Shown here: positions 6,549 to 49,481 of the stretch, piece after piece
How positions within the stretch are numbered: the stretch's first letter is position 1
How the letters are laid out: each line of letters starts with the position of its first letter
Source of the DNA: Escherichia coli
GTDB lineage: Bacteria; Pseudomonadota; Gammaproteobacteria; Enterobacterales; Enterobacteriaceae
Assembly: GCF_030013595.1 (NCBI RefSeq)
Contig: NZ_CP122768.1
Strand: one strand, 5' to 3'
DNA: 64,000 bases
Notes under the pieces: model-generated
Seen by the model: only the letters and a program-made list of their open reading frames with translations
What the model was told of the DNA's origin: nothing
The model's database searches: none
Translations under genes and position numbers: made by a program

Positions 6549-7395
6549 GTTCCAGAATGTAGTGATTGTCACTATTGTCGGTTGGCTTGTGTTGTTTGTC
6601 TTTCTGCCCAACCTGATGATCATTGGCACCAGCTTTTTGACCCGCGACGACGCCAGTTTCGTCAAAATGGTCTTTACGCTGGATAACTACACGCGTCTGC
6701 TCGATCCGCTCTATTTTGAAGTGCTATTGCACTCGCTGAATATGGCGCTGATCGCCACCCTCGCCTGCCTGGTGCTGGGCTATCCTTTTGCCTGCTTTCT
6801 GGCGAAGCTGCCACACAAGGTGCGTCCGCTGCTGCTGTTTCTGCTGATTGTTCCGTTCTGGACCAACTCATTGATTCGTATCTACGGGCTGAAAATTTTC
6901 CTCAGCACCAAAGGCTATCTCAACGAGTTTTTGCTCTGGCTGGGCGTTATTGATACACCAATTCGCATCATGTTCACGCCCAGTGCGGTGATTATCGGTC
7001 TGGTTTACATTCTGCTACCGTTTATGGTGATGCCGCTGTACTCCAGTATCGAAAAACTGGATAAGCCGTTGCTGGAGGCGGCGCGCGATCTCGGTGCCAG
7101 CAAGTTGCAGACCTTTATCCGCATCATTATCCCACTGACGATGCCGGGAATTATTGCCGGATGTTTGCTGGTGATGCTGCCAGCGATGGGCCTGTTCTAT
7201 GTGTCCGACCTGATGGGCGGTGCGAAAAACCTGCTGATCGGTAACGTCATCAAAGTACAGTTCCTCAATATTCGTGACTGGCCGTTTGGTGCAGCCACCA
7301 GCATTACGCTGACTATCGTAATGGGCCTGATGTTGCTGGTTTACTGGCGCGCTTCTCGTTTGCTGAATAAGAAGGTGAGCGATATAGATAATTAA
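6532..7395 (+). CDS. potB: spermidine/putrescine ABC transporter permease with a prophage-derived altered C-terminus
   Basis: Polytopic permease ORF; the last codons (…KKVSDIDN) lie inside the prophage junction, whereas the native end (…KKVELE-stop, overlapping the potC start) is found at attR near 48670-48690. Confidence 0.85.
7364..7377. repeat. attL core: 14-bp direct repeat tgaataagaaggtg
   Basis: Identical 14-mer at 48665-48678 next to the integrase; lies within potB 3' codons. Confidence 0.75.
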
Positions 7396-34026: not shown

Positions 34027-35085
34027 TCATGCTTTCCACTTCAGGACACCCGAATTTTTCGCGTGCATTAAAAAACGAATCAGCAACAACAGCTGGCTGC
34101 CGTGTTTTTCTTCAAAATCTTTTACCCCAGCATGCAGTTCGTTATGGCATTTGCGGCACAGCGGAATAACAAACAAATCGTCAGCCTTTGTTCCCATCCC
34201 TCCCAGCCCATGACCAATGATGTGGTGCGGATCATCTGCCTGATTGCCACACGTCACGCATTTCTGCGTTTTTACCCAGCGCGTGTATACGGGCATCTCT
34301 TCCCGTTGTGGTTTCTGGCGCTGGAGATACTGAGCCGGAGACTCCGGATCAACGGCAATGCTGACCACCGTCTTTTCCTGTGGCAGGCTCTGTTGCTGGT
34401 GGACGTGAGGCGGTAGCACAATATTTTTTGTGCGCTGCTTCAGTATGCTGGTGGCTGTCTGCTCTCCAGGTACGATGTCGCTGTCGCGGTACACTGAGAG
34501 GATTTTTTCCGTACGTAATCCCAACGAACGACGTAATACTGCCTCCGGTAGCGCGTCCGCCACCTGATTGCAGACCGCCCACCAGGATAACTCAGCCAGC
34601 GATAATTCCCGCTCCTGCGCACCGCTTATTGCGTGACGGATGACGTCAATCATCCATGCTGTCAGGTTTTGTTGAGCAAGTTGCTCAAGTGATTCTGAGG
34701 TCTGGTCACGCAGCTGGTTGTCGCAGTGCCAGCACAACACCATCGCGCCGGTGCCGTAACGATGTATGACGGTTTCGCTGTGGTGATAGTCACCATGAGG
34801 CCACTGGCAGGATTTAACATGACGCAGGAGCCAGTCAGACAGTGCACCAGCGCCGCCGGCAGCACGAATCACCCGTTCGTCGCTGAAAAATGGCAGTAAT
34901 GATTTATCTTCCGCCAGCGGCTGGCGAACGGCAGGAACAACTCCGGACGGCAGACCACGCATGCTTTTCGGTTCCGGCTCCACCAGCACTCGAGGGTTAT
35001 GAAATACCTGCATGGATTCACGGCCCGGCTTTAGCACCACCAGCCCAAGTTCCGGTACCGGAACAGGTCGAAGCAATACCCGCAC
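34027..35085 (-). CDS. DUF968-family phage protein (YdfU-like) with C-terminal HNH-like Cys/His cluster
   Basis: 352-aa ORF (start may be the internal MQVFHN); C-terminus CVTCGN…HHIIGHG…CRKCHNELH. Confidence 0.6.
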   Translation of the reverse strand: MRVLLRPVPVPELGLVVLKPGRESMQVFHNPRVLVEPEPKSMRGLPSGVVPAVRQPLAEDKSLLPFFSDERVIRAAGGAGALSDWLLRHVKSCQWPHGDYHHSETVIHRYGTGAMVLCWHCDNQLRDQTSESLEQLAQQNLTAWMIDVIRHAISGAQERELSLAELSWWAVCNQVADALPEAVLRRSLGLRTEKILSVYRDSDIVPGEQTATSILKQRTKNIVLPPHVHQQQSLPQEKTVVSIAVDPESPAQYLQRQKPQREEMPVYTRWVKTQKCVTCGNQADDPHHIIGHGLGGMGTKADDLFVIPLCRKCHNELHAGVKDFEEKHGSQLLLLIRFLMHAKNSGVLKWKA

Positions 35086-41166: not shown

Positions 41167-41689
41167 ACGAACCCCTGGCAGACATTTGTTTATCTGCAAA
41201 GTAATATTGGTATTGCTGACGATACGCGTGCTTGAAAGCAATAGCTTTTTCTATAAGCTCGTCAGTCTCACGTTCCACAACAGCTGGATCCGCAAAAAGC
41301 AGCCCGGACTCCACCACATCGCCATATTCTTTGTTTAACCCGGCGATCATGTACGTAATGCTTTTTCCGTCAGTAATTTCACAATACAACCTGAAATCGC
41401 TGATCCGGATAGCCTCCATAATTGCCGGAATCAGCGCCGTGAATTTTTCCCGCTTATCCCTGGTGTCGATAGCTTTCCAGCGTTCGAATATCTTCACCCG
41501 GTTAACGCCCAGCGCCCGTTGATCAACCGCGCCATCATCAAACGTGACGCGTTGAACATCGATGTTCGGGCGTTCTTTCAGAGCCCAGAAGGCTTCCGTG
41601 ATTAATATCGTCGCCTGCTCCTGTGTCATTCCTGGTCGGCACACCCAGGCATCCAGAGCCTCACAAACCTGTTCAGGGGTGATTTTCAT
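41138..41689 (-). CDS. hypothetical early protein (YdaT/cII-position)
   Basis: 183-aa ORF between the cro-like and O-like genes. Confidence 0.4.
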   Translation of the reverse strand: MKITPEQVCEALDAWVCRPGMTQEQATILITEAFWALKERPNIDVQRVTFDDGAVDQRALGVNRVKIFERWKAIDTRDKREKFTALIPAIMEAIRISDFRLYCEITDGKSITYMIAGLNKEYGDVVESGLLFADPAVVERETDELIEKAIAFKHAYRQQYQYYFADKQMSARGSYEYRCTTMG

Positions 41690-41900
41690 TGTTCAACCGC
41701 CCCGCCCGCTTTGCCTTACGATATTCGTCATAAACTTTGGGGTCGTACTGAAGTTCCCCGCCGGATGCCTCTTGCAGGCGCATCGCGCGACCTTCAGGAA
41801 CCAGTTCCCCCCATGCAGCAATGCTTGCCAGCCTAACTCCTGCGGCATTGGCAAGCTTTGTTTTGCTGCCAAAAAACGCTATAGCATCAATTTTCAACAT
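41673..41900 (-). CDS. Cro/YdaS-like HTH regulator
   Basis: 75-aa ORF divergent from the repressor gene. Confidence 0.6.
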   Translation of the reverse strand: MLKIDAIAFFGSKTKLANAAGVRLASIAAWGELVPEGRAMRLQEASGGELQYDPKVYDEYRKAKRAGRLNNENHP

Positions 41901-41976
41901 ATCGAGCTCCTTAGATTTTCCTAAGGAAACTAGATCGTAGAGAAACCTAAGTCAAGAAAAATTAGAATTCCCTAAT
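41901..41976. promoter_or_regulatory. divergent promoter/operator region with cttagg/cctaag palindromes
   Basis: ccttagATTTTCctaagg palindrome and a further aacctaag half-site between the divergent repressor and cro-like genes. Confidence 0.55.
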
Positions 41977-42384
41977 ATGAAAAACGAAACCTTCGGTGCT
42001 CGCCTCTTACATAGGCGTAAAAAATTAAAACTGTCTCAGGCCGCATTAGGTAAGCTGGTCAAAGTGGCTCACGTAACAATTTCTCAATGGGAAAGAGATG
42101 AAACACAGCCGGCGGGGAAAAGATTATTCGCACTGAGCCAAGCGCTTCAGTGCTCACCGACTTGGCTTCTTTTTGGGGATGAAGATAAACAACCAGGCGA
42201 ACCGATCCCGGATAATCAGCCAGCCATTCTGACAGAAGATCAAAAAGAGTTACTTCAACTGTTCGACGCACTGCCTGAGTCAGAGCAAAAGGCCCTGTTG
42301 TCAGAGATGCGTGCTCGAGTTGAAAATTTCAACAAACTTTTTGAAGAACTACTCAAAGCTCGCAAAAGAAGCGCAAACAAATAA
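41977..42384 (+). CDS. prophage repressor (XRE-family HTH, cI/DicA-like)
   Basis: 135-aa ORF with N-terminal HTH (LSQAALGKLVKVAHVTISQWER); flanked by related operator motifs. Confidence 0.75.
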   Translation: MKNETFGARLLHRRKKLKLSQAALGKLVKVAHVTISQWERDETQPAGKRLFALSQALQCSPTWLLFGDEDKQPGEPIPDNQPAILTEDQKELLQLFDALPESEQKALLSEMRARVENFNKLFEELLKARKRSANK

Positions 42385-42429
42385 TCCCCTTTTTTCTCCA
42401 CACCCTGTAATAAAAAGCACAAACTTTCA

Positions 42430-42520
42430 AACACTTGTGTTTTTTACATCAAAAAACTTAGGTTTTTCTACATAAAAATCTTGACCACCAGCCTTAGGTT
42501 ATTCTAAATTTCATTCATCA
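42430..42520 (+). promoter_or_regulatory. candidate repressor-controlled early-left promoter (TTGACC -35) with two cttaggtt operator half-sites
   Basis: aacttaggttttt and gccttaggttatt flank ttgacc; same half-site as in 41901-41976. Confidence 0.5.
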
Positions 42521-42586
42521 AGACACCGCACGGTGTTCTCAGCAAACAGTTCCGCCACCCCGGCGTTAAGGGGAAATGAGGTCAAC

Positions 42587-42739
42587 ATGGATACTATCGA
42601 TCTTGGCAACAACGAATCTCTGGTATACGGCGTGTTTCCCAACCAGGACGGCACATTCACCGCGATGACGTATACCAAAAGCAAAACGTTTAAAACCGAA
42701 ACTGGCGCTCGTCGCTGGTTAGCCAGAAACACTGACTGA
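42587..42739 (+). CDS. YdfA-like small protein (DUF1391-like)
   Basis: Internal Met of track ORF 42533-42739 gives MDTIDLGNNESLVYGVFPNQDGTF… (~50 aa), first gene of the early-left operon. Confidence 0.5.
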   Translation: MDTIDLGNNESLVYGVFPNQDGTFTAMTYTKSKTFKTETGARRWLARNTD

Positions 42740-43389
42740 TGAGGCTGACGATGGAATTTAAAGATTTACCAATATCAATACAGGAAATGGCCGCTGATGT
42801 GATTCGCTCGCAACTGGCGCGGAACCCAATGATATTAGTAGATAAAGTGTTCATCAGAAATTTATCAAATCATGTCCGCAATTCTTTTACCGGACTGTAT
42901 TCATATTCGTTCACAAACAATCATTGTGTAGAAAATAAAGCAAAGCCCATTGCAGAAACGATAACGCAAAACATCAATACGAAACAAACCGAAGAAGAAA
43001 TTGACCAGTTTACCCGTGATGCTGGCTTAAAATGCAGGAAAGAAAAATCGCCATATGCGGGAAATATGTTTGTTTATGACAACCTTATCCGAATTCGTGG
43101 CGAAATTCCGACTGAATACCTGGCAAGAATTCACCAGGCATTACTTAAAAATCTGGAAACGGAAGTATTTGATGGCAATACCAACGGCTCCTTCGTGGTG
43201 TCAACTCTCGCAAAAGAGTGGGATACAGATAATCGCTGGAATGTTGCTACATGGTTATTCAGCAACAAAGCTGCTGCCCTGGAAGCTGCGGCCTGTATTT
43301 GCGACCTGCTAAGGACAGACCGCAAATACAACCTGGATGTGTATAGCTATATTTATGCTGAACACTATCCGCTATGGATTAACTGGTAA
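42739..43389 (+). CDS. hypothetical protein (moron, no recognisable family)
   Basis: 216-aa ORF; start may be 42751 (MEFKDL). Confidence 0.45.
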   Translation: MRLTMEFKDLPISIQEMAADVIRSQLARNPMILVDKVFIRNLSNHVRNSFTGLYSYSFTNNHCVENKAKPIAETITQNINTKQTEEEIDQFTRDAGLKCRKEKSPYAGNMFVYDNLIRIRGEIPTEYLARIHQALLKNLETEVFDGNTNGSFVVSTLAKEWDTDNRWNVATWLFSNKAAALEAAACICDLLRTDRKYNLDVYSYIYAEHYPLWINW

Positions 43390-43671
43390 TTACAAAGCTG
43401 TACCAGCAGGGCCACGGCGACCAGCGCCACGATTGTAATCAATGATGCCATTATAAAGCGCATTATTTAATTTATCGTCGAATGCCGATTCTGTGAGCCC
43501 TAGATCTGAATGAGTTTTTAATAACCCTGATTGCCTGAGTTGATTAACCAGGCATTCAATCTGTTTTTCAATAAGCGGATGTATTGGCTTGTTTGGCATT
43601 TTATCCTCCATTGAAGTTACTGGTTGAGAATGGAGACCACACGTGACAGCGTGTTGTCGTGCACCGGACAC
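43390..43671 (-). CDS. hypothetical small protein, convergent with the upstream gene
   Basis: Track ORF 93 aa; probable start at internal MEDKMPNK (~73 aa). Confidence 0.4.
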   Translation of the reverse strand: MSGARQHAVTCGLHSQPVTSMEDKMPNKPIHPLIEKQIECLVNQLRQSGLLKTHSDLGLTESAFDDKLNNALYNGIIDYNRGAGRRGPAGTAL

Positions 43672-43929
43672 GGATAAGAATCCGGCACTGACAGTTTACT
43701 GAAAGGATATATCCCTGAAAAGTCAGGGCATAACGCGAAAGCGCACGGCGGAGGTGTCTTTTCCTTAGAAGGCTTGTCGTTAGATTTCTTCGATTGTGCG
43801 CTTCCGGTTGTAGCACTCCGCGAAATGGCGCGGCGGTAAGTATGGCGGGGTTATTCCTTCCCCGTTGAGGACACCGGGTTGTCAGGTTGACCATACGCTT
43901 AAGTGACAACCCCGCTGCAACAACCCATG

Positions 43930-43988
43930 TTGATTACCTTTTGGTGGGTATCCGTTTTTTGTTTTCCCTTGTGATACCCGCCCTTTTT
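43930..43988 (+). ncRNA. DicF-like small RNA (terminator-ended)
   Basis: Hairpin ggtgggtatc…gatacccgcc plus T5 at 43943-43988, about 185 bp upstream of the DicB homologue; Qin-like gene order. Confidence 0.45.
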
Positions 43989-44173
43989 AAAGTGAATTTT
44001 GTGATGCGGTGAATGCGGCTCAGCGCACGCGGAACAGTTAAAAAAGTGATCGGTACTCTGTATTTGTTTTATGGAGTTGGTTTCCCTGTATTCCGGCGTT
44101 AATTGTTAACTGGTTAACGTCACCTGGAGGCACCAGGCACCGCATCACAAAATTCATTGTTGAGGACGCGATA

Positions 44174-44362
44174 ATGGAAACGTTATTACCAAACGTCAAT
44201 ACGTCTGAAGGTTGTTTTGAAATTGGTGTCAGAATCAGTAACCCTGTATTTACTGAAGATGCCATTAATAAGAGAAAACACGAACGGGAGCTATTAAATC
44301 AAATATGCATTGTTTCAATGCTGGCCCGTTTACGCCTGATGCAAAAAGGACGCTGCCAATGA
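44174..44362 (+). CDS. dicB: cell division inhibitor DicB homologue
   Basis: 62-aa ORF METLLPNVNTSEGCFEIGV.ISNPVFTEDAINKRK…ICIVSMLARLRLM, matching my recollection of Qin DicB. Confidence 0.75.
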   Translation: METLLPNVNTSEGCFEIGVRISNPVFTEDAINKRKHERELLNQICIVSMLARLRLMQKGRCQ

Positions 44363-44562
44363 ATACAGCATTTGCACTCGTTCTGACAGTTTTTCTTAAT
44401 ACAGGCGAACCAGTCGATCTTGTTATTGGTATACATGACTCAATGAAAGAATGCATGGCTGCCGCAGCGGAACAGAAAATTCCCGGCAACTGTTATCCGG
44501 TTGATAAAGTTATTCGCATGGACAATAACGAAATCCCGGCAGGACTTAAAACAGCACCGTAA
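44359..44562 (+). CDS. YdfD-like small protein
   Basis: Internal Met of track ORF 44305-44562 (MNTAFALVLTVFLNTGEPVD…), ~67 aa, immediately after dicB as in Qin. Confidence 0.5.
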   Translation: MNTAFALVLTVFLNTGEPVDLVIGIHDSMKECMAAAAEQKIPGNCYPVDKVIRMDNNEIPAGLKTAP

Positions 44563-44639
44563 TTAATATCCGGTTTCATTTTTATATGCCAGCAATGGCA
44601 GGGATTTGTTCACCCTAAAAATAGTTACGAGGTTTATCA

Positions 44640-47102
44640 ATGAGCGCTGATAAAGAAGAAATTGCACTATATTACGAAGCCAAAAATGACAAAGTCAGAA
44701 AACGCCTTGGGATTAAAGGCGGTTTTTACTGGCGCACAGCAAAAAAATTATCGATTGCAATATCACGCGGTGTTGTCGCAATGGACGATGCCGGATTTGA
44801 CGAAGAGGATTTTAAAAAACCTGTTCGCGTCCATTTACCCGTTGTGAATGACCTTCCTCCGGAAGGCGTGTTTGATACCGAATTCTGCAACCGATACGAA
44901 AAAGGCGGGGAAGATGGTATCACAATGGTACTTATCGCGCCCTCTGTTCAGGACAAACCAGCCAGCACTGACAATACCAACGTCAACGGTGAAGACATGA
45001 CTGAGATTGAGGAGAATATGCTCCTGCCAGTTTCAGGTCAGATTCTGCCTGTTCGATGGCTGGCGCAACACAACAGCGAAAAACCGATCACGCACGTTTC
45101 GCGGGACGAACTGCGCGCATTACATAACGCACAGGATGAAAAACTTCCCGCCGTTACCGCGCTGGCCATCTCAAATAAAGCAGCGCAACTCGAACCACTG
45201 GAAATTCGCGATCTCCACAAACTGGTACGCGACACTGACAAAGTTTTCCCTAATCCTGGTAATTCAGACCTGGGACTGATGACCGCTTTTTTCGAAGCAT
45301 ACCTGGGCGCTAACTACACCGATCGCGGTCTGCTTACAAAAGAGTGGATGAAGGGAAATCGTGTTTCACGTATCACCCGCACGGCTTCCGGCGCTAATGC
45401 TGGCGGCGGGAACAAAACCGATCGCAATCCGAATTTAGTACACACCTTCGATACGCTGGATGTGGAGATTGCAGCAGCCACACTTCCGATGGATTTTAAT
45501 ATTTATGAAATTCCGGGCAGCGTTTATCGTCGCGCAAAAGAAGTCGTCCGGAAGAAAGAAAGTCCGTTCAAAGAATGGTCCGCAGCACTTCGCGCAATCC
45601 CGGGTATCCTGGATTATTCCCGTGCCGCTATTTTTGCACTTATCCGGAGCGCCCACCCTGAACTTTACCTCTACAGGGTACGCCTTCAGGTGTATATCAA
45701 CGCCCACTTAACGGAGACTGATCACGAGAATCCTACCGAGGAAACTCTCGCTGCTGCACGACATACACCGGAAAAAGATATCCTGGAAGAAGTTAACCGC
45801 GAACTGGCTGCTGCTAAACACGAAACAGAAGAAGAAAAAAATAATGAGGAAAAATCACAACCGTCTGACGCAATGGCAGATGAACAGGCAACGACTGAAA
45901 CAATGGAGCCGGATACAACTGAACATCGCCAGGACACGCAATCGCTGGATACTCAGGCGCAGATAGATCCGGTTAATCAGGTAAAAGTTACCGCTGACGA
46001 AGTAAACAAAATTATGCAGGCAGCCAATATCAACCAGCCTGACGCCAATCAGTTGCTTGCTGTATCACGTGGTGAATTTGTTGCAGGGATTAGCGACCCG
46101 AATGATCCGAAATGGGTGAAGGGGATTGAAACCCGCGATTCAGTGAATCAGAACCAGCAAGAAATGGAACAGAACGACCAGAAAGCGGAAAAAAACAGCC
46201 CAAATGCGTTACAAAACGAGCCAGAAACGAAACAACCTGAGCCAGTAGCGCAACAGGAATCGGAAAAAGTCTGCACCGCCTGCGGTCAGAGCGGTGGCGG
46301 CAGCTGCCCTGATTGTGGCGCGGTGATGGGCGACGCAACATACCAGGAAACATTCGATGAAGAGAATCAGGTTGAAGTTCAGGAAAATGATCCGGAGGAA
46401 ATGGAAGGCGCTGAACATCCACACAAGGAGAATGCTGGCAGCGCTCAGGACCACGCCAGCGATAATGAAACTGGCGAGACGGCAGATCCCTTAATTGCGG
46501 TGAACGGTCATCACGTTATCACATCCACCAGCAGAGTGTGGTACCACCTGATGATCGACCTTGAAACAATGGGAACCAACACCAATGCGCCCATCGTGGT
46601 TATTGGTGCGGTTTTCTTCGACCCACAAACAGGGGAAATCGGGCCAGTATTTTATATCGTTATCAGTCTGACTGACGCAATGAATACAGGGGCTGTTCCT
46701 GACGGTGGAACCATCGAATGGTGGCTGAAGCAGTCCAGTGAAGCCAGAGCTGCCATTTTAACAGACCAGGTAAAACTGAAGGATGCCCTTTCGCGGTTTC
46801 GGGAGTTCATCAACGAATACTCAGATGAAAAATTCGTTCAGGTATGGGGTAATGGTGCAACTTTCGATAACGCAATTTTGCGCACCTCATACGAACGTCT
46901 GGACATCCCCTGCCCGTGGCGCTACTACAACGATCGCGATGTACGCACAATCGTTGAGCTGGGAAAAACCATCGGTTTTGATGCCAGAACAGCTATCCCG
47001 TTCGAAGGTGTACCCCACAATGCACTGGATGATGCCCGTCACCAGGCGAAATACGTTTCAGTAATCTGGCAAAAACTGATCCCGAGTCAGGCTGATTTTT
47101 AA
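44640..47102 (+). CDS. large multidomain protein: N-terminal domain of unknown function, acidic linker, CxxC-x-CxxC zinc ribbon, C-terminal DnaQ-like (DEDDh) 3'-5' exonuclease domain
   Basis: 820-aa ORF; C-terminus has DLET…, FDNAIL and HNALDDA motifs in exonuclease order; zinc ribbon CTACGQSGGGSCPDCG; long E/Q/D-rich linker. Confidence 0.6.
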   Translation: MSADKEEIALYYEAKNDKVRKRLGIKGGFYWRTAKKLSIAISRGVVAMDDAGFDEEDFKKPVRVHLPVVNDLPPEGVFDTEFCNRYEKGGEDGITMVLIAPSVQDKPASTDNTNVNGEDMTEIEENMLLPVSGQILPVRWLAQHNSEKPITHVSRDELRALHNAQDEKLPAVTALAISNKAAQLEPLEIRDLHKLVRDTDKVFPNPGNSDLGLMTAFFEAYLGANYTDRGLLTKEWMKGNRVSRITRTASGANAGGGNKTDRNPNLVHTFDTLDVEIAAATLPMDFNIYEIPGSVYRRAKEVVRKKESPFKEWSAALRAIPGILDYSRAAIFALIRSAHPELYLYRVRLQVYINAHLTETDHENPTEETLAAARHTPEKDILEEVNRELAAAKHETEEEKNNEEKSQPSDAMADEQATTETMEPDTTEHRQDTQSLDTQAQIDPVNQVKVTADEVNKIMQAANINQPDANQLLAVSRGEFVAGISDPNDPKWVKGIETRDSVNQNQQEMEQNDQKAEKNSPNALQNEPETKQPEPVAQQESEKVCTACGQSGGGSCPDCGAVMGDATYQETFDEENQVEVQENDPEEMEGAEHPHKENAGSAQDHASDNETGETADPLIAVNGHHVITSTSRVWYHLMIDLETMGTNTNAPIVVIGAVFFDPQTGEIGPVFYIVISLTDAMNTGAVPDGGTIEWWLKQSSEARAAILTDQVKLKDALSRFREFINEYSDEKFVQVWGNGATFDNAILRTSYERLDIPCPWRYYNDRDVRTIVELGKTIGFDARTAIPFEGVPHNALDDARHQAKYVSVIWQKLIPSQADF

Positions 47103-47163
47103 TGTTCAACCGTCGCCAGTTGTCGTTGGTATTCTGCAACTGGCGCGTTCCGGAGTGATAACC

Positions 47164-47433
47164 ATGAGCGAACAGTACCTGATAACGCTCGACGAGTGGA
47201 AACCAAAACGGTTCAGTCTCCCAATAACAAACACCACCCTGGTGAAATACGGAAAACTAGGATACATCGTTCCAAGACCACAAAAAATTCGTGGGCGTTG
47301 GCTGATAGATCGCCGGGCAGTATTTGTTGGACCTGGTGAAACAGGAATTGCGCCGGAAATTCATACTGGCGATGATGATGCACTGAAGGAGATTTTAACT
47401 CATGTCACCGAGGCCACGAAAAAACAGCACTGA
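47164..47433 (+). CDS. xis: excisionase (Xis-like)
   Basis: Small ORF just upstream of int, overlapping its start; winged-helix-like segment resembling lambda Xis. Confidence 0.6.
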   Translation: MSEQYLITLDEWKPKRFSLPITNTTLVKYGKLGYIVPRPQKIRGRWLIDRRAVFVGPGETGIAPEIHTGDDDALKEILTHVTEATKKQH

Positions 47434-48520
47434 CGTAGCCGGTCTTTACGAAAAGTTTGATCGCAGAACTGGCAGGGTTTACTACCAGTATAAAAACCCT
47501 GTGACTGGAAAATTTCACGGACTCGGAACAGACAAAGGTAAGGCAGAAAAAATCGCTTCCACAGCCAATCAGCGAATAGCTGCAGCAGAGGCTGAATATT
47601 TCATGCGCAAAATTGATGAAAGTCCGTCAGCAACAAAACGTCGGGGTATCAGATTAAAGGCATGGGTTGATCGATATCTGAAAATACAGGACGCGCGACT
47701 GAAAAATGGAGATATTGCAGCTACAACTCACAAAGAAAAAGCCCGAATGGCTGCATACCTGGTTTCCCGTCTGGGAAACCACCCATTGAAAGAACTGGAA
47801 GTAAGAGACTTTGCATTAATACTGGATGAGTGGCTGGATAAAGACATGGTCAGCACAGCGAGAGTAAATCGCGGATTATGGGTTGATATTTATAAAGAAG
47901 CACAGCATGCAGGGGAAGTTCCTCCTGGATGGAATCCTCCGGAGGCTACCCGTAAACCGATCCCTAAAGTAACCAGAGCCAGGCTCACCATGGAAGACTG
48001 GCAAAAAATTTACAATGCAACGCCTGAAAAACACTTTATCCGTAACGCAATGCTTCTTGCGATTGTTACTGGTCAGCGCCGTGATGACATTTGCCACATG
48101 CGTTTTTCAGATGTGTGGAACGAACACTTGCATATCACCCAGGGAAAAACCGGAATGCGTCTGGCGTTACCGCTTACACTACGCTGTGATGCCATTGGGA
48201 TAACGTTAAAAGAAGTTATTGATGGGTGCCGAGACAGAATATTAAGTCCATATCTAATCCATAGTCGGCACCAGAAACAACCGAAGCCGATGAGTAAAGA
48301 CAACCTGAGCGACTACTTTGCCAAAGCACGGGATCTGGCTGGGATAATTCCACCAGCAGGAAAAACTCCGCCAACATTTCATGAACAACGCTCTCTATCA
48401 GAACGGCTGTACCGTGCACAGGGTATCGATACAAAAACATTACTAGGACATAAAGTCCAGGCAACCACCGATCGCTATAACGATACTCGAGGTCAGGAAT
48501 GGGTTAAGTTGGTTATTTGA
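47402..48520 (+). CDS. int: tyrosine integrase (lambda Int family)
   Basis: 372-aa ORF with catalytic-domain motifs (R…, HxxR-like LLGH, C-terminal Y in TDRYND) next to attR. Confidence 0.9.
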   Translation: MSPRPRKNSTDVAGLYEKFDRRTGRVYYQYKNPVTGKFHGLGTDKGKAEKIASTANQRIAAAEAEYFMRKIDESPSATKRRGIRLKAWVDRYLKIQDARLKNGDIAATTHKEKARMAAYLVSRLGNHPLKELEVRDFALILDEWLDKDMVSTARVNRGLWVDIYKEAQHAGEVPPGWNPPEATRKPIPKVTRARLTMEDWQKIYNATPEKHFIRNAMLLAIVTGQRRDDICHMRFSDVWNEHLHITQGKTGMRLALPLTLRCDAIGITLKEVIDGCRDRILSPYLIHSRHQKQPKPMSKDNLSDYFAKARDLAGIIPPAGKTPPTFHEQRSLSERLYRAQGIDTKTLLGHKVQATTDRYNDTRGQEWVKLVI

Positions 48521-48559
48521 CAAACACCATATGGAATATCCGTCACCATCTCAGGAAAA

Positions 48560-48620
48560 AAGTGTTGTAAAATGCGTGGCCTAGTTTTGGGGAAACGTTT
48601 TGGAGAGATTTTGGAGAAAG
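48560..48620. promoter_or_regulatory. candidate integrase arm-type binding repeats (ttttggRga x3)
   Basis: gttttggggaaac gttttggagagat tttggagaaagg between int and attR; similar ggttttggagaat on the attL arm near 7470-7500. Confidence 0.4.
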
Positions 48621-48664
48621 GAAAAAATTGAATAAATTCAAAATCCTGAAAGTGTCCCGCCTTA

Positions 48665-48678
48665 TGAATAAGAAGGTG
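48665..48678. repeat. attR core: 14-bp direct repeat tgaataagaaggtg
   Basis: Identical to 7364-7377; followed by the native potB 3' end (gtggaactcgaatga). Confidence 0.75.
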
Positions 48679-48686
48679 GAACTCGA

Positions 48687-49481
48687 ATGATCGGTCGACT
48701 GCTTCGCGGCGGTTTTATGACCGCTATCTACGCGTACCTGTATATTCCAATCATTATTTTGATTGTGAACTCTTTCAACAGCTCGCGCTTTGGCATCAAC
48801 TGGCAGGGTTTTACCACTAAATGGTATAGCCTGCTGATGAACAACGACAGTCTGTTGCAGGCAGCTCAGCATTCATTGACGATGGCGGTGTTTTCAGCGA
48901 CGTTTGCTACGCTTATCGGTTCACTGACGGCAGTTGCGCTGTACCGTTATCGCTTTCGCGGTAAACCGTTCGTTAGCGGAATGCTGTTCGTGGTGATGAT
49001 GTCGCCAGATATTGTGATGGCGATTTCTCTGCTGGTGCTGTTTATGCTGCTGGGTATTCAGCTTGGCTTCTGGTCGCTGCTGTTCTCGCATATCACCTTC
49101 TGCCTGCCGTTTGTGGTGGTGACGGTGTATTCGCGCCTGAAAGGTTTTGACGTGCGAATGCTGGAAGCGGCGAAAGATCTCGGTGCCAGCGAATTTACCA
49201 TTCTGCGAAAAATCATTCTGCCACTGGCAATGCCAGCGGTAGCGGCGGGCTGGGTGTTAAGCTTTACCCTGTCGATGGACGATGTAGTAGTTTCTTCGTT
49301 CGTCACCGGACCAAGCTATGAAATTCTGCCGTTAAAAATTTATTCGATGGTCAAAGTCGGCGTATCGCCGGAAGTTAACGCGCTGGCAACCATATTACTG
49401 GTGCTGTCGCTGGTGATGGTAATTGCCAGCCAGCTTATTGCTCGTGATAAAACGAAAGGTAACACAGGGGACGTTAAATGA
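48687..49481 (+). CDS. potC: spermidine/putrescine ABC transporter permease
   Basis: 264-aa polytopic permease ORF; start overlaps the native potB stop. Confidence 0.95.
   Translation: MIGRLLRGGFMTAIYAYLYIPIIILIVNSFNSSRFGINWQGFTTKWYSLLMNNDSLLQAAQHSLTMAVFSATFATLIGSLTAVALYRYRFRGKPFVSGMLFVVMMSPDIVMAISLLVLFMLLGIQLGFWSLLFSHITFCLPFVVVTVYSRLKGFDVRMLEAAKDLGASEFTILRKIILPLAMPAVAAGWVLSFTLSMDDVVVSSFVTGPSYEILPLKIYSMVKVGVSPEVNALATILLVLSLVMVIASQLIARDKTKGNTGDVK

Follow-up and report, generated by a model that had tools for sequence, protein, structure and literature searches.

RecE, the exonuclease VIII of the Rac prophage, carries an N-terminal part of about 600 residues with a zinc ribbon and acidic linkers in front of a PD-(D/E)XK nuclease of 5'-3' polarity; its gene is the final one of the early-left region ahead of xis and int, and its partner is recT. 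Among the DEDDh-type exonucleases, DexA of phage T4 (PDB 8kel/8ken) is a single-domain exodeoxyribonuclease of 227 residues, and the residue numbering of its E. coli homologue EcD (HAK9828821.1) suggests that EcD is built likewise. Exonucleases of the DnaQ-like type also occur as stand-alone proteins in lambdoid recombination regions. The 182-residue gp30 of phage mEp235 is encoded in the early-left recombination region between SSB and Abc2 and beside the Erf annealase (Erf-SSB-exo-Abc2 module), and epsilon34 is a further phage with this stand-alone type (PMC12315714). A 2025 survey of lambdoid phages described DnaQ-like 3'-5' nucleases in Rec modules and, sporadically, "very near int"; it also recorded RecE-like proteins that lack a nuclease domain, and an annealase was missing in only 9 of the 246 phages with Rec genes (PMC12315714). 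Here we analyzed a gene at positions 44640-47102 (+) of a 64,000-nucleotide stretch of Escherichia coli DNA (contig NZ_CP122768.1; the whole stretch is called the window), whose 820-residue product joins the N-terminal region of RecE to a predicted DEDDh 3'-5' exonuclease domain.

The coding sequence is complete, with an uninterrupted open reading frame (ORF) of 820 codons starting at an ATG, and direct reading of the sequence places a Shine-Dalgarno GAGG at 44629-44632 (+), 7 nucleotides (nt) 5' of the start codon. Two Pfam families make up its architecture, namely PF06630 (Exonuc_VIII, residues 56-187, E = 1.9e-26) and PF16473. The NCBIfam RecE model NF007259 covers residues 1-620 at model positions 1-603 of 877, and its score of 890 bits stays under the cut-off of 1269 because the last third of the model is missing. 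Residues 58-619 (44811-46496, +) align with residues 50-591 of K-12 Rac RecE at 56% identity by BLASTP, with both acidic stretches and the zinc ribbon aligned, and tblastn gives the same coordinates. Past RecE residue 591, BLASTP yields no alignment to Rac RecE, and Pfam reports no PDDEXK match in the 820-residue protein; this end of the homology coincides with the start of the RecE 5'-3' PD-(D/E)XK nuclease. At the protein level, RecE homology reaches residue 619 and exonuclease homology begins at residue 636, while at the DNA level Rac homology stops near nt 46497 and homology to the stand-alone phage exonuclease begins near nt 46545. Since RecE homology stops and a full DEDDh domain takes over, the window protein is, as judged by homology, a RecE-family member with an exchanged catalytic domain, in which the non-catalytic front 75% of RecE is joined to a DnaQ/DexA-type exonuclease. 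A RecE-type 5'-3' exonuclease activity on double-stranded DNA (dsDNA) is not expected, because the PD-(D/E)XK domain is absent.

The C-terminal domain (residues 636-810; 46545-47069, +) matches PF16473, the Rv2179c-like DEDDh family, over model positions 2-177 of 177 with an E-value of 1.4e-69, and its match to RNase_T is weak. The motifs DLET, FDNAIL, and HNALDDA lie at residues 640-643, 742-747, and 793-799, respectively. T4 DexA is the best solved match by sequence, at only about 28% identity, and its catalytic residues D7, E9, D119, H186, and D191 align with D640, E642, D743, H793, and D798 of the window protein. All five are invariant in an alignment of a T4-type DexA, the stand-alone mEp235 exonuclease, a second E. 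coli fusion, and the window protein, and they are also conserved in the DEDDh-type family representatives. In its AlphaFold model, the domain adopts an RNase H-like DEDD fold with a predicted local distance difference test (pLDDT) score of about 90. In the Foldseek ranking of PDB structures, DexA (8kel) comes first with template modelling (TM) scores of 0.65-0.72, followed by RNase T, Orn/REXO2, and the ERI nucleases. The intact catalytic residues, the confident model, and the DexA/RNase T-like fold lead in a straightforward way to the prediction of an active, metal-dependent 3'-5' exonuclease. The window protein thus shares its DEDDh sub-family with DexA and EcD, and differs from DexA by 620 additional RecE-like residues. 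Its domain is 58% identical (residues 636-813) to mEp235 gp30; unlike gp30, it is fused to the RecE N-terminal region and has no annealase, SSB, or Abc2 beside it in the window.

The two conserved ends appear to be joined by a flexible tether. Residues 1-400 (44640-45839, +), which include the Exonuc_VIII match, reach a pLDDT of 92.6 in an AlphaFold model built with a 78-sequence alignment. In the full-length model, residues 1-400 and 635-815 are the confident segments and disordered acidic stretches lie between them, with disorder (pLDDT <50) at residues 404-449, 494-540, and 563-630. Composition analysis identifies DE-rich blocks at residues 361-440 and 561-620. The first acidic linker (residues 404-449; 45849-45986, +) is followed by a short helical pair inside the tether (residues 452-476, with helices at 452-464 and 469-476; 45993-46067, +; pLDDT about 58-78), which is kept in RecE, and the second acidic linker contains the fusion junction (residues 563-630; 46326-46529, +). 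The zinc ribbon between them (residues 541-562; 46260-46325, +; pLDDT about 64) has a CxxC-x7-CxxC pattern formed by C545-x2-C548-x7-C556-x2-C559. It is common to Rac RecE and the window protein in the BLASTP alignment, and its match to the Pfam double-zinc-ribbon family (DZR) is marginal (E = 0.12). The ribbon was ruled out as a family-defining feature, with only 6-8 of the 78 family representatives described below having one. An earlier sequence-only reading of this DNA had proposed an 820-residue product with a DEDDh C-terminus, a zinc ribbon, and an acidic linker, and each of these elements was recovered here; its description of the N-terminal ~380 residues as being of unknown function missed the RecE match.

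A Chi octamer, GCTGGTGG, lies on the minus strand at 46525-46532 (pattern search), exactly within the 16 codons that separate the RecE-homologous part from the DEDDh domain. Its complement, CCACCAGC, is kept at this place in 4 of 4 aligned DEDDh-type fusion genes, and it might conceivably have had a role in creating the fusion.

The gene is already catalogued as a very common E. coli prophage gene and adds no new entity, and a literature search on the fusion of the RecE N-terminal region to a DEDDh domain found no publication. An identical protein in NCBI (P0001) is named "exonuclease [Escherichia coli]", and the best 120 database clusters all combine PF06630 with PF16473 in intact ORFs of 791-835 residues. 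A count over 5426 complete E. coli genomes gives 1199 with the whole gene (coverage of at least 80%) and 3371 with the DEDDh segment alone, of which a genome may hold as many as six copies; recT and the nuclease domain of Rac recE occur together in 1727. Every inspected locus with the DEDDh segment lies within a prophage, and the AlphaFold database descriptions include "Exodeoxyribonuclease VIII of prophage CP-933R". In NZ_CP182374.1 (L001 6001-8466), the NCBI Prokaryotic Genome Annotation Pipeline (PGAP) splits an intact ORF of 821 residues, calling one part an incomplete "RecE family exodeoxyribonuclease" pseudogene and the other a 606-residue "3'-5' exoribonuclease domain-containing protein". 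This split recurs in several RefSeq E. coli genomes and appears to be an annotation artefact, since the ORF is uninterrupted in NZ_CP182374.1.

To describe the family, residues 1-620 were used as the query of an exhaustive, profile-free search among representatives at 50% clustering, which returned only 261 of them. Of the 78 with at least 450 residues, 20 carry a PDDEXK domain (DUF3799) and 15 a DEDDh domain; in 3, a RecT domain is attached directly, and about 40 have no recognised C-terminal domain, many of these being fragments. The three proteins in which the RecE N-terminal region runs straight into RecT with no nuclease between them (P0125, P0181, and P0256) may be natural recE-recT deletion fusions or the result of gene-calling read-through. 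Four divergent DEDDh-type representatives, at 35-45% identity to the window protein, are each directly followed by xis or int; the annealase-less arrangement is thus, as far as these relatives indicate, old and stable. The intact Qin-type "exonuclease" WP_000048360 (823 residues; L006 3123-5594) shares with the window protein the middle region (named YdfE_C in newer Pfam releases), the zinc ribbon, and the DEDDh domain, whereas its first ~245 residues are unrelated and residues 245-470 only distantly similar, the window N-terminus being of the Rac RecE type. This comparison makes the gene a mosaic, in which two or more types of N-terminus occur.

Purifying selection acts on both folded ends. 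The ratios of nonsynonymous to synonymous substitution rates (dN/dS, Nei-Gojobori, against relatives) are 0.16-0.21 for residues 58-360, 0.13-0.15 for residues 471-530, and 0.16-0.31 for the DEDDh domain, and those of the acidic linkers are 0.4-1.0, with 0.37-0.39 for residues 361-470 around the first linker. A frameshift, fusion artefact, or pseudogene was ruled out by the intact ORFs in other genomes and the low dN/dS.

The fusion gene closes the early-left operon of a lambdoid prophage of about 41 kb inserted at the potB/potC junction. The gene order is a cI/dicA-like repressor (41977-42384), small ORFs, a dicB-like ORF (44174-44362, +; phrog_1251), a ydfD-like ORF (44305-44562, +; phrog_1092), the fusion gene, the excisionase gene xis (47155-47433, +; phrog_629), the integrase gene int (47402-48520, +; phrog_7244/phrog_1), potC, and potD, with xis beginning 53 nt past the fusion-gene stop codon. 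This early-left position between the repressor region and xis/int is that of lambdoid recombination modules, and it is the slot held by RecE in Rac. The order dicB-ydfD-exonuclease-xis-int is annotated in three other records (L001, L002, and L006). Qin of K-12 has the matching order too; its counterpart of the fusion gene, ydfE (L007 3579-4499), is an IS2-disrupted pseudogene. A consensus scan found a single promoter-like site on the right strand, at 42481-42510 (+) just past the repressor gene, and none directly 5' of the fusion gene. This site is a candidate early-left promoter, analogous in position to dicBp of Qin, and the scan together with the Qin analogy makes co-transcription of the fusion gene with the early-left operon likely.

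No recT, ralR, or rcbA was found by tblastn 3' of the gene, where RecE has its partner. In the 64-kb window, tblastn gave no match to RecT (Rac and Gifsy-2), Erf, phage SSB, Abc2, RalR, or RcbA, and the same run returned the expected RecE and exonuclease matches as the only ones. PHROGs profiles applied to five early-left and ten early-right ORFs recognised O-like, P-like, Ren, RusA, HNH/DUF968-type, and Q proteins, with no annealase and no recognised RecBCD inhibitor among them. Pfam and PHROGs on the protein itself also found no annealase. On these three lines of search, the idea of an annealase nearby or inside the protein was rejected. The earlier interpretation was right in part: the nuclease domain, the recombination-gene slot, and the missing RecT partner with xis and int next all hold; the N-terminus is not an orphan.

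The prophage is rich in Chi. The pattern search counted 14 octamers in the window, spread over 7295-48357, where 2.15 would be expected; the ~41-kb prophage holds 11 of these, which corresponds to about one per 3.7 kb and a host-like density. Four lie within 650 bp (34395-35044) inside a 352-residue HNH/DUF968-like ORF (34027-35085, -). The Chi density and RusA fit phages that leave recombination to the host RecBCD/RecA, and the Chi richness is in line with the Chi-rich lambdoid phages without a Rec module (PMC12315714). The limits of the prophage are probably given by a 14-bp direct repeat, TGAATAAGAAGGTG, found at 7364-7377 in the 3' end of potB and at 48665-48678 just upstream of potC; these would be the attachment (att) cores of an element of about 41.3 kb integrated at the potB/potC junction. 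The integrase-potC junction is identical in arrangement in the phage record ON470619. Within the operon, positions 43658-44174 retain the Qin ydfC-dicF-dicB intergenic region with an overall conservation of 83%, the core segment of the DicF small RNA (sRNA; ~43922-43977) is divergent, and Rfam at its gathering threshold detects no DicF and no other RNA element in 41500-48800. An ORF of 93 residues (43390-43671, -; phrog_4274, of unknown function) lies antisense within this rightward operon, directly after a 216-residue ORF of phrog_2151 (42739-43389).

We consider it moderately probable that the protein is an active 3'-5' DNA exonuclease carried on the RecE platform, expressed from the early-left operon and used for accessory DNA-end processing, with no RecET-type annealing on its own. 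A DexA/Rv2179c-type DEDDh domain, with metal-dependent activity on DNA 3' ends, would have taken the place of the PD-(D/E)XK domain and, along with it, of the downstream recT. An acidic flexible tether of about 230 residues would link this exonuclease to the conserved RecE N-terminal platform, an architecture suggested by the AlphaFold confidence at residues 1-400 and 635-815 and the disorder between them. The platform presumably delivers any enzyme it carries to one place, for example DNA ends or a host partner. Transcription would probably occur with dicB and ydfD from the repressor-controlled early-left promoter, so the protein would be made on induction or infection and not in the quiet lysogen. 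Recombination of the RecET exonuclease-plus-annealase type should be impossible for the protein by itself, and strand exchange would most likely be left to the host RecBCD/RecA, as suggested by the host-like Chi density, the RusA resolvase, and the lack of a recognised RecBCD inhibitor. The exonuclease would then be an accessory that trims or degrades the 3' ends of linear DNA, whether of the phage, the host, or a competitor.

Several points weigh against this explanation. The polarity of the enzyme and its DNA substrate, as opposed to RNA, are assigned through family membership, and the Pfam family bears the name of a mycobacterial exoribonuclease. Exonucleases of 3'-5' polarity usually inhibit homologous recombination (PMC12315714), so a positive role in recombination is not obvious. 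The RecE N-terminal region has no known function (PMC11611040) and the model of residues 1-400 found no structural relative outside the RecE family, which makes the targeting platform a conjecture. The timing of expression depends on the consensus promoter scan and the analogy with the Qin dicBF operon. As for the annealase, Beta, Sak, and Sak4 were covered by PHROGs on the tested early ORFs and not by tblastn, and the virion-gene part of the prophage lay outside the profile scan.

The strongest competing explanation, which is possible though rather unlikely, is anti-phage defence or superinfection exclusion of the DexA/EcD ("HREX") kind, in which the protein would selectively degrade the modified, 5-hydroxymethylcytosine (5hmC)-type DNA of T-even phages entering the cell and protect the lysogen. 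T4-type DexA is the closest solved structure both by sequence and by fold, and EcD degrades T4 DNA, spares unmodified dsDNA, and protects against T4 when plasmid-borne (PMC12153337). DexA homologues are most frequent in Escherichia (PMC12153337); here, the DEDDh segment has the genome counts given above and a prophage location in every locus inspected. The EcD signature, however, is not cleanly present. The tetramer aspartate D90 of DexA, an alanine in EcD, is retained as D715, the equivalent position being D in 12 and E in 5 of the relatives. Of the 5hmC-recognition residues of DexA, W152 corresponds to Y763, and D169 to F780 with D781 adjacent, in an alignment that could be off by one residue, and the family is variable at both positions. 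PADLOC gave no match, and the position at the end of a repressor-controlled early operon without a promoter of its own implies that the gene is probably silent in the lysogen. Furthermore, the EcD evidence stems from one study, in which the gene was expressed from a plasmid, and the conserved 620-residue RecE part would be left unexplained. The EcD residue equivalent to DexA D90 is numbered Ala78 (PMC12153337), a number that equals the distance from Met638 ("MIDLETMG") to D715 in the window protein (nt 46551-46784); EcD may thus begin at the corresponding methionine, whether as a stand-alone protein or as a fragment.

DexA-like scavenging, in which 3'-end degradation of host DNA fragments or oligonucleotides would supply phage DNA synthesis during lytic growth, seems improbable. 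A role in host DNA scavenging is established for DexA (PMC12153337), the domain family is common to both proteins, and expression would probably be early and lytic. Against this, PHROGs recognised no host-DNA-degrading endonuclease among the 20 early-operon ORFs tested, neither the large RecE platform nor the Rec-module slot would be needed, and the place of the stand-alone homologues is in recombination modules, between SSB and Abc2.

We find it just as hard to favour an RNA-directed 3'-5' exoribonuclease that would trim host or phage transcripts, sRNAs, or signalling oligonucleotides. Rv2179c of Mycobacterium tuberculosis, the namesake of PF16473 and compared here through the Pfam profile only, is a chromosomal single-domain exoribonuclease; the fold neighbours include RNase T, Orn/REXO2, ERI, and the CBASS-associated Cap18, and PGAP calls relatives "3'-5' exoribonuclease domain-containing protein". 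Among characterised relatives, however, the closest is the DNA exonuclease DexA, the fusion partner and the genomic slot are related to DNA recombination, and RNase T acts on DNA too, with single-stranded DNA complexes among the fold matches. The weakest alternative, a functionless relic left by decay of recE after loss of its nuclease domain and recT, would accord with the IS2-disrupted ydfE in the same slot of K-12, the PGAP label "RecE family, incomplete" for the 5' part in some genomes, and the many fragments among family representatives, yet it is very improbable given the intact ORFs of 791-835 residues across the best 120 clusters, the dN/dS well under 1 by which selection maintains both folded parts, the catalytic residues kept in relatives of 33-45% identity with the same gene order, and the apparently artefactual nature of the PGAP split over an uninterrupted ORF in NZ_CP182374.1.

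A further reading, which we put forward only tentatively and regard as doubtful, takes the RecE N-terminal region as a portable targeting platform that phages may combine at will with a nuclease of either polarity (5'-3' or 3'-5') or with an annealase. The DEDDh version would then serve an annealase-independent pathway, either with RecBCD/Chi or against competitor or modified phage DNA.

In conclusion, the value of the finding is that of a pointer to a prophage protein that about 60% of complete E. coli genomes encode, often more than once; the prophages with it include those of enterohaemorrhagic E. coli (EHEC) such as CP-933R. Its names are inconsistent, ranging from "exodeoxyribonuclease VIII" and "exonuclease" to "3'-5' exoribonuclease" or a split into a pseudogene and a coding sequence. 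The RecE N-terminal region is conserved here without the RecE nuclease or RecT, which argues for an independent function of this region. If the DexA/EcD defence idea is true, T-even phages would meet a very common immunity factor in this protein. The DEDDh version is about twice as widespread in E. coli as the Rac-type RecET. If the RecE N-terminal region is a portable platform, the partner bound by it would also explain the N-terminal two-thirds of RecE, a part that boosts linear-linear recombineering.

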